A stretch of DNA of 15,914 bases, taken from a virus. Lineage: Duplodnaviria > Heunggongvirae > Uroviricota > Caudoviricetes. The translations under genes were made by a program, and so were the position numbers. The notes beneath the pieces were generated by a model. That model was not told the origin of the DNA and did not search any database. It saw only the letters and a list, made by a program, of their open reading frames with translations. This document shows, in pieces, positions 4,351-6,978 of this stretch; positions within the stretch are counted from its first letter, which is position 1; every line of letters begins with the position of its first letter. The DNA lies in IMG/VR virus record IMGVR_UViG_2531839374_000021, positions 1 through 15,914 of that record; one strand, 5' to 3'.

Positions 4351-6978
4351 TTATTCTTCTTCTGGCTCGTCGTCAACGTCCACTTCCGGAGCGATTTCAT
4401 CGTCCCCTTCCGCGGCACTGCCGTCGATGGTATCGAGATCTTCCTCGTCAACCGGTTCAGCAACACGTTGCAGACCCACTACGTTTTCATCTTCCGCAGT
4501 ACGGATGAGGATCACGCCCTGGGTGTTACGGCCCACGATGCTGATTTCTGAAACGCGAGTACGTACCAGCGTACCGGCATCGGTGATCATCATGATCTGG
4601 TCGCAGTCATCTACCTGTACCGCGCCAACAACTAAACCGTTACGTTCGGTAACCTTGATGGAGATAACCCCTTTCGTCGCACGCGACTTGGTTGGGTATT
4701 CCGCCACTGCGGTACGTTTACCGTAACCGTTTTGCGTTGCGGTGAGGATTGCGCCATCGCCACGAGGCACGATCAGAGAGACGACTTTATCGCCTTCACC
4801 TAAGCGAATACCGCGAACACCGGTGGTGTTGCAGCCCATCGCACGGACAGAAGACTCTTTAAAGCGCACCACTTTACCTTCAGCGGAGAACAGCATTACT
4901 TCGTCTTCGCCGCTGGTCAGGTCAACGCCGATCAGCTCATCGCCGTCAACCAGTTTGATCGCCACTTTACCGGCGGTACGCAGACGGTTGAACTCGGTGA
5001 GGACAGTTTTCTTCACGGTACCGTTAGCGGTCGCCATGAAGACTTTCACGCCTTCTTCAAACTCGGTCACTGGCAGGATCGCAGTGATACGTTCGTCCTG
5101 CTCCAGCGGCAGCAGGTTGACGATCGGACGACCGCGCGCGCCACGAGTGGCTTCCGGCAACTGATAAACTTTCATCGAATAGACGCGACCACGGCTGGAG
5201 AAGCACAGAATATGGTCGTGAGTGTTCGCCACCAGCAGTCGGTCGATAAAGTCTTCTTCTTTAATACGTGCGGCAGATTTACCTTTCCCGCCACGACGCT
5301 GCGCTTCGTATTCAGAAAGCGGCTGATACTTAACGTAGCCCTGGTGAGAGAGCGTCACTACCACATCTTCCTGAGTGATCAGATCTTCCAGGTTGATGTC
5401 TGCGCTGTTGGCGGTGATTTCAGTACGACGTTTGTCACCGAACTGTTCACGAACCAGCTTCAGCTCTTCACGGATCACTTCCATCAAACGATCGGCGCTA
5501 CCAAGAATACGCAACAGTTCCGCGATCTGATCCAGCAGCTCTTTGTATTCGTCGAGCAGTTTTTCGTGCTCAAGGCCGGTCAGTTTCTGCAAACGCAGAT
5601 CCAGAATCGCCTGAGCTTGCTGTTCGGTCAGGTAGTACAGACCATCACGCACGCCGAACTCTGGCTCCAGCCATTCCGGACGCGCAGCATCGTCGCCAGC
5701 ACGTTCGAGCATCGCGGCAACGTTGCCCAGCTGCCACGGATTAGCAACCAGCGCAGTTTTCGCTTCTGCAGGCGTCGGCGCATGACGGATCAGTTCGATG
5801 ATCGGGTCGATGTTCGCCAGCGCCACGGCTAATGCTTCAAGGATATGAGCACGATCGCGAGCTTTACGCAGTTCGAAAATAGTACGACGGGTCACCACTT
5901 CACGGCGGTGACGAACAAACGCCGCGATGATGTCTTTCAGGTTCATGATCTTCGGCTGACCATGGTGCAATGCCACCATGTTGATACCGAAAGAAACCTG
6001 CAACTGGGTCTGGGAGTAGAGGTTGTTGAGCACAACTTCACCGACCGCATCGCGTTTCACTTCAATCACGATGCGCATACCGTCTTTGTCAGACTCGTCA
6101 CGCAGCGCGCTGATGCCTTCCACGCGTTTTTCTTTTACCAGTTCCGCAATCTTCTCGATCAGGCGCGCTTTGTTTACCTGATACGGAATTTCGTGGACGA
6201 TAATGGTTTCACGACCGGTTTTGGCGTCAACTTCCACTTCTGCGCGAGCGCGGATATACACCTTGCCGCGACCGGTACGGTAAGCTTCTTCAATACCGCG
6301 ACGACCGTTAATGATTGCCGCCGTCGGGAAGTCCGGCCCCGGGATGTGTTCCATCAGCCCTTCAATGCTGATGTCTTCATCATCGATATACGCCAGACAA
6401 CCGTTGATGACTTCCGTCAGGTTGTGCGGCGGGATGTTGGTTGCCATACCTACGGCGATACCGGAAGAACCGTTCACCAGCAGGTTAGGAATTTTGGTTG
6501 GCATGACGTCGGGAATTTTTTCCGTGCCGTCATAGTTATCAACGAAATCGACCGTCTCTTTTTCGAGATCGGCCATCAGTTCATGGGCAATTTTCGCCAG
6601 ACGGATTTCCGTATAACGCATTGCCGCCGCAGAGTCGCCGTCGATGGAACCGAAGTTACCCTGACCGTCTACCAGCATGTAACGCAGCGAGAATGGCTGC
6701 GCCATACGGACGATCGTGTCATAAACCGCCGAGTCACCATGGGGATGGTATTTACCGATTACGTCACCAACGACACGGGCAGATTTTTTATAGGCTTTGT
6801 TCCAGTCATTGCCTAGTACGTTCATGGCGTAAAGTACGCGACGGTGTACCGGCTTCAGGCCATCTCGGACATCTGGCAGCGCACGGCCAACAATGACCGA
6901 CATCGCATAATCCAGATAGGAGCTCTTCAGCTCTTCCTCAATGTTGACCGGTGTAATTTCTCTCGCAAGGTCGCTCAT
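4351..6978 (-). CDS. gyrA: DNA gyrase subunit A
   Basis: 875-aa [50 protein letters not shown]..., active-site Tyr region, acidic C-terminal tail. The quinolone-resistance-determining region reads [10 protein letters not shown] (Ser83, Asp87 wild type). GAGGGA Shine-Dalgarno upstream of the ATG. Confidence 0.98.

Follow-up and report, generated by a model that had tools for sequence, protein, structure and literature searches.

The gyrA gene in the stretch of DNA analysed here (15,914 nucleotides in full, hereafter the window) is wild type at codons 83 and 87, the two positions at which the common fluoroquinolone-resistance substitutions occur. The best explanation, to which we assign a probability of about 95%, is that the gene comes from the chromosome of a Shigella flexneri-type strain and has a quinolone-resistance-determining region (QRDR) of the drug-sensitive form and a single amino acid substitution, E507K, that is most likely neutral. 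The remaining content of the window consists only of insertion sequence (IS) elements, a yfaA remnant, ubiG, a yfaL remnant, and nrdAB (Table 1).

Table 1. Features of the window, in order of position (position 1 is the first base of the window).
Feature	Position	Strand	Remarks
IS3-family transposase fragment	31..849
IS1	about 1165..1938		ORF 1195..1923
Second IS3-family element	2225..3429		ORFs 2225..2563 and 2590..3429; best matches include IS600-like annotations
yfaA (DUF2138) remnant	3807..4250	-	first ~126-138 of 562 codons kept; IS junction at ~3820
gyrA CDS, intact	4351..6978	-	875 codons and TAA stop; from ORF list and translation
GyrA box QRRGGKG	5281..5301	-	residues 560-566, C-terminal domain; intact
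gyrA codon 507	5458..5460	-	AAG = Lys (K-12 GAG = Glu); G1519A, window 5460; outside the QRDR
gyrA codon 122	6613..6615	-	catalytic Tyr, present
QRDR, codons 67-106	6661..6780	-	40 residues; protein identical to K-12
GyrA residues 75-94	6697..6756	-	20-residue peptide; single occurrence in six-frame translation
gyrA codon 87	6718..6720	-	GAC = Asp, wild type
gyrA codon 83	6730..6732	-	TCG = Ser, wild type; S83L would be TTG
gyrA-ubiG divergent intergenic region	6979..7124		146 bp; identical to K-12
ubiG, intact	7125..7847	+	UbiG differs from K-12 by V8E and I219L
yfaL pseudogene	7975..11636	-	AIDA-I family autotransporter adhesin YfaL/EhaC
nrdA	12352..14637	+	NrdA differs from K-12 by T589A
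nrdA-nrdB spacer	14638..14783		146 bp (233 bp in K-12)

The quinolone-resistance-determining region

What distinguishes a sensitive gyrA allele from a resistant one? In the type IIA topoisomerase, helix alpha-4 carries Ser83 and Asp87 beside the catalytic Tyr122, and these two residues secure the water-Mg2+ bridge by which a fluoroquinolone is bound in the gyrase-DNA cleavage complex. The substitutions S83L and D87N/G/Y disrupt this bridge and lead to a higher MIC. In E. coli and Shigella, the gyrA alleles that confer fluoroquinolone resistance concern the same gene and the same codons as those considered here, but the substitutions that define them are absent from the window. Neither a change at codon 83 (S83L/W/A/V) nor one at codon 87 (D87N/G/Y/H) was found in gyrA, and the gene is therefore not a QRDR mutant.

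The limits of the QRDR used here, codons 67-106, were reportedly set out by Yoshida et al. in 1990. Further GyrA positions have been associated with resistance, and the list of these minor positions is of the kind given in PointFinder- and AMRFinderPlus-type catalogues. None of them is substituted: A51, A67, G81, D82, A84, Q106, A119, and A196 all match K-12 and are wild type. The conservation of this part of the protein is broad. Among 80 gammaproteobacterial GyrA orthologs, taken from species-representative genomes, positions 67, 81, 82, 84, and 106 are invariant, as is Tyr122; most of the residues at position 83 are S or T, and those at position 87 are D or E.

A sequence-only reading of this DNA had called Ser83 and Asp87 wild type and the substitutions S83L and D87N/G/Y absent, and both statements are correct; the rest of the QRDR and positions 51, 119, and 196 match K-12 as well. 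It had placed the peptide that contains these residues at 6700-6760; the peptide is indeed found there, but its true span (6697..6756) differs by 3-4 bases, and the strand had not been given. Within residues 75-94 there are two silent differences from K-12, V85 (GTC>GTT at 6724) and R91 (CGC>CGT at 6706). The sequence-only reading overlooked these two changes inside its span, as well as E507K outside the QRDR.

At codon 83, wild type is the commoner state, present in over half of the complete E. coli genomes. Codon 83 was counted with a 30-mer probe in which each 28-base seed was forced to include the diagnostic base, and in the 5426 genomes it was TCG (Ser) in 3069 and TTG (Leu) in 2305.

The product of the gene would be a full-length GyrA, predicted to be catalytically competent and encoded on the chromosome of a Shigella flexneri-type strain, and its quinolone-binding surface would have the ancestral, drug-sensitive form. 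Because both Ser83 and Asp87 and the remainder of the QRDR are unchanged, the allele should add no target-site fluoroquinolone resistance. In a published series of Shigella isolates, those susceptible to ciprofloxacin had no QRDR changes in gyrA or parC; intermediate isolates carried gyrA S83L together with parC S80I, and resistant isolates carried D87N in addition (PMC7367718). As far as its gyrA sequence is concerned, the strain would be predicted to be susceptible to quinolones. The gyrA call covers the 15.9-kb window, and parC, gyrB, and the efflux, qnr, aac(6')-Ib-cr, qepA, and oqxAB loci lie outside it. The caveat attached to the sequence-only reading, that resistance could still come from parC or plasmid genes, was thus well placed, as none of those loci is within the window.

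The result is a routine genotype call on a known gene in a known wild-type state, and it raises no new biological question; E507K alone goes beyond textbook knowledge. Its value lies in surveillance: it records that an S. flexneri-type assembly lacks resistance to fluoroquinolones through gyrA, in keeping with a lineage that is older or drug-naive.

Identity of the gene and the substitution at codon 507

Are the residues called 83 and 87 the true resistance positions? The gene might be the paralog parC, or the numbering might be offset; parC belongs to the same motif family, and a mix-up is possible in principle for a reader who works without tools. The alignment to gyrA of K-12 MG1655 (b2231, NP_416734.1) speaks against both possibilities, since the two genes are of equal length, with no indels, and differ at 13 nucleotides and one amino acid. 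The proteins share 874 of 875 residues, and the remaining 12 nucleotide changes are silent. The best PDB matches are to E. coli GyrA residues 1-875, whereas topoisomerase IV ParC is far weaker (E about 1e-116). In the structure of full-length E. coli gyrase (PDB 6RKS), residues 1-875 of chain A align with residues 1-875 of the protein encoded here, and E507K is the sole difference. Across residues 535-841, the C-terminal domain can be aligned with PDB 1ZI0, and it is of the GyrA type. It carries the GyrA box, the feature that tells GyrA from ParC, in which it is absent; the catalytic Tyr122 of the winged-helix domain is also in place. The chromosomal context argues against parC as well, as the order yfaA-gyrA-ubiG-yfaL-nrdAB is syntenic with that of K-12. 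The gapless alignments to K-12 GyrA and to PDB 6RKS rule out both a parC mix-up and a numbering offset. The minus-strand ORF is full-length gyrA, orthologous to E. coli GyrA throughout, and its numbering is secure; the alignment to K-12 GyrA that the sequence-only reading had proposed as a check, with a numbering error in mind, finds codons 83 and 87 unsubstituted. Every one of the 5426 complete E. coli genomes has a match to the ORF at >=95% identity. With the annotated gyrA of the closest of these, the identity is 99.9% at the DNA level, which leaves no room for a chance resemblance.

The only amino acid difference from K-12 GyrA, E507K, invites another interpretation: that the QRDR is wild type but E507K is functional, perhaps an adaptive change in gyrase activity, in the supercoiling set-point or in sensitivity to some gyrase poison. 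In its phenotype, the allele would then not be wild type. The substitution reverses a charge, from acidic to basic, and it is rare. In public data, the exact K507 protein is confined to 11 contigs, whose labels read Shigella flexneri or E. coli. A 41-mer carrying the AAG codon and centred on the variant base had no match among the 5426 complete E. coli genomes, nor did the 41-mer of a second K507 haplotype, with AAA; about 970 of these genomes have nearby silent differences that place them beyond the reach of the 507 probe. The absence of matches is not a search artefact, since a control 41-mer for E507, the K-12 allele, matched 4455 of the 5426 genomes, and the probe therefore works. Codon AAG is shared by the window and four contigs of Shigella type (L002, L004, L006, and L007), with gyrA DNA that is identical among them. 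Codon AAA occurs in two others (L003 and L005), whose gyrA differs from that of the window by 48-49 nucleotides. The occurrence of K507 on two codons in distinct gyrA backgrounds implies that it arose at least twice, and some selective effect is conceivable. Against a functional role, position 507 tolerates a range of residues: in the 80 orthologs it is E in 59, V in 10, N in 4, L in 3, Q in 2, I in 1, and K in 1, the natural lysine being that of ortholog L065. In the sequence, more than 400 residues separate it from the QRDR, and it falls close to where the N-terminal domain ends (the N-terminal fragments used for structures extend to about 522-525; the C-terminal construct begins at 535). 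A literature search found no paper that mentions gyrA together with E507K, and thus no link to any phenotype. Moreover, with many thousands of genomes sequenced, a G>A transition that is neutral would be expected to occur twice. It is therefore very improbable that this recurrent, rare charge reversal represents an adaptive change of gyrase in a Shigella flexneri lineage; most likely, E507K is a neutral polymorphism that marks the lineage.

Flanking genes and related genomes

From 3820 to 15914, the window is collinear with positions 2336262..2348514 of K-12, except for an IS1 insertion and a deletion in yfaL. K-12 MG1655 and the window share the QRDR, Tyr122, the GyrA box, the 146 bp upstream of gyrA, and, towards ubiG and nrdAB, the neighbouring genes; in contrast to K-12, yfaA in the window is truncated by IS elements. 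The identity of the gyrA-ubiG spacer indicates that the upstream control region of gyrA is unchanged.

Over its full length, the window matches contig AMGB01000058.1 of assembly GCA_000296305.1 at 100% identity (L002 16978..1065, reversed). The same GyrA protein and gyrA DNA are present in GCA_014017465.1 (L004), ERR048277 (L006), and SRR061722 (L007). By contrast, GCA_041192945.1 (L003) and ERZ27305665 (L005) share the GyrA protein with the window but differ in gyrA DNA. The yfaA gene calls of L004, L006, and L007 are short, at 85-131 residues, and that of L003 has 562 residues. L003 also has intact genes of the yfaA, yfaT, and yfaS region, and thus presents an ordinary E. coli-type background. 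The four IS copies of the window, together with the truncated yfaA and the yfaL pseudogene, amount to Shigella-style decay and fit a Shigella genome. The sequence-only reading had attributed the DNA to Shigella or E. coli, an origin that agrees with the identical NCBI contig, with the labels of the contigs carrying the exact protein, and with the Shigella-like load of IS elements and pseudogenes.

On the left of gyrA, an IS cluster occupies positions 1..3820 in place of the yfaA-yfaT-yfaS side of K-12. The second IS3-family element of this cluster is possibly IS600-like, as its best matches suggest. The two IS1 copies of the window are 99.4% identical and lie in opposite orientation.

On the right, the second IS1 copy, at about 10866..11636, replaces the first ~276 codons of yfaL, and about 800 bp are lost relative to K-12. 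The yfaL remnant is further interrupted by two TAG stops in frame, at 10174-10176 and at 8503-8505, and it has in-frame deletions of 6 bp and 30 bp near 8889 and 8907. The NrdB protein is identical to that of K-12, and the window ends at the nrdB stop codon. The nrdA-nrdB spacer is shorter than in K-12 because one REP-like palindromic unit of about 85 bp is missing. A related REP-like copy, 92% identical and inverted, is located 3' of ubiG at 7871..7953.
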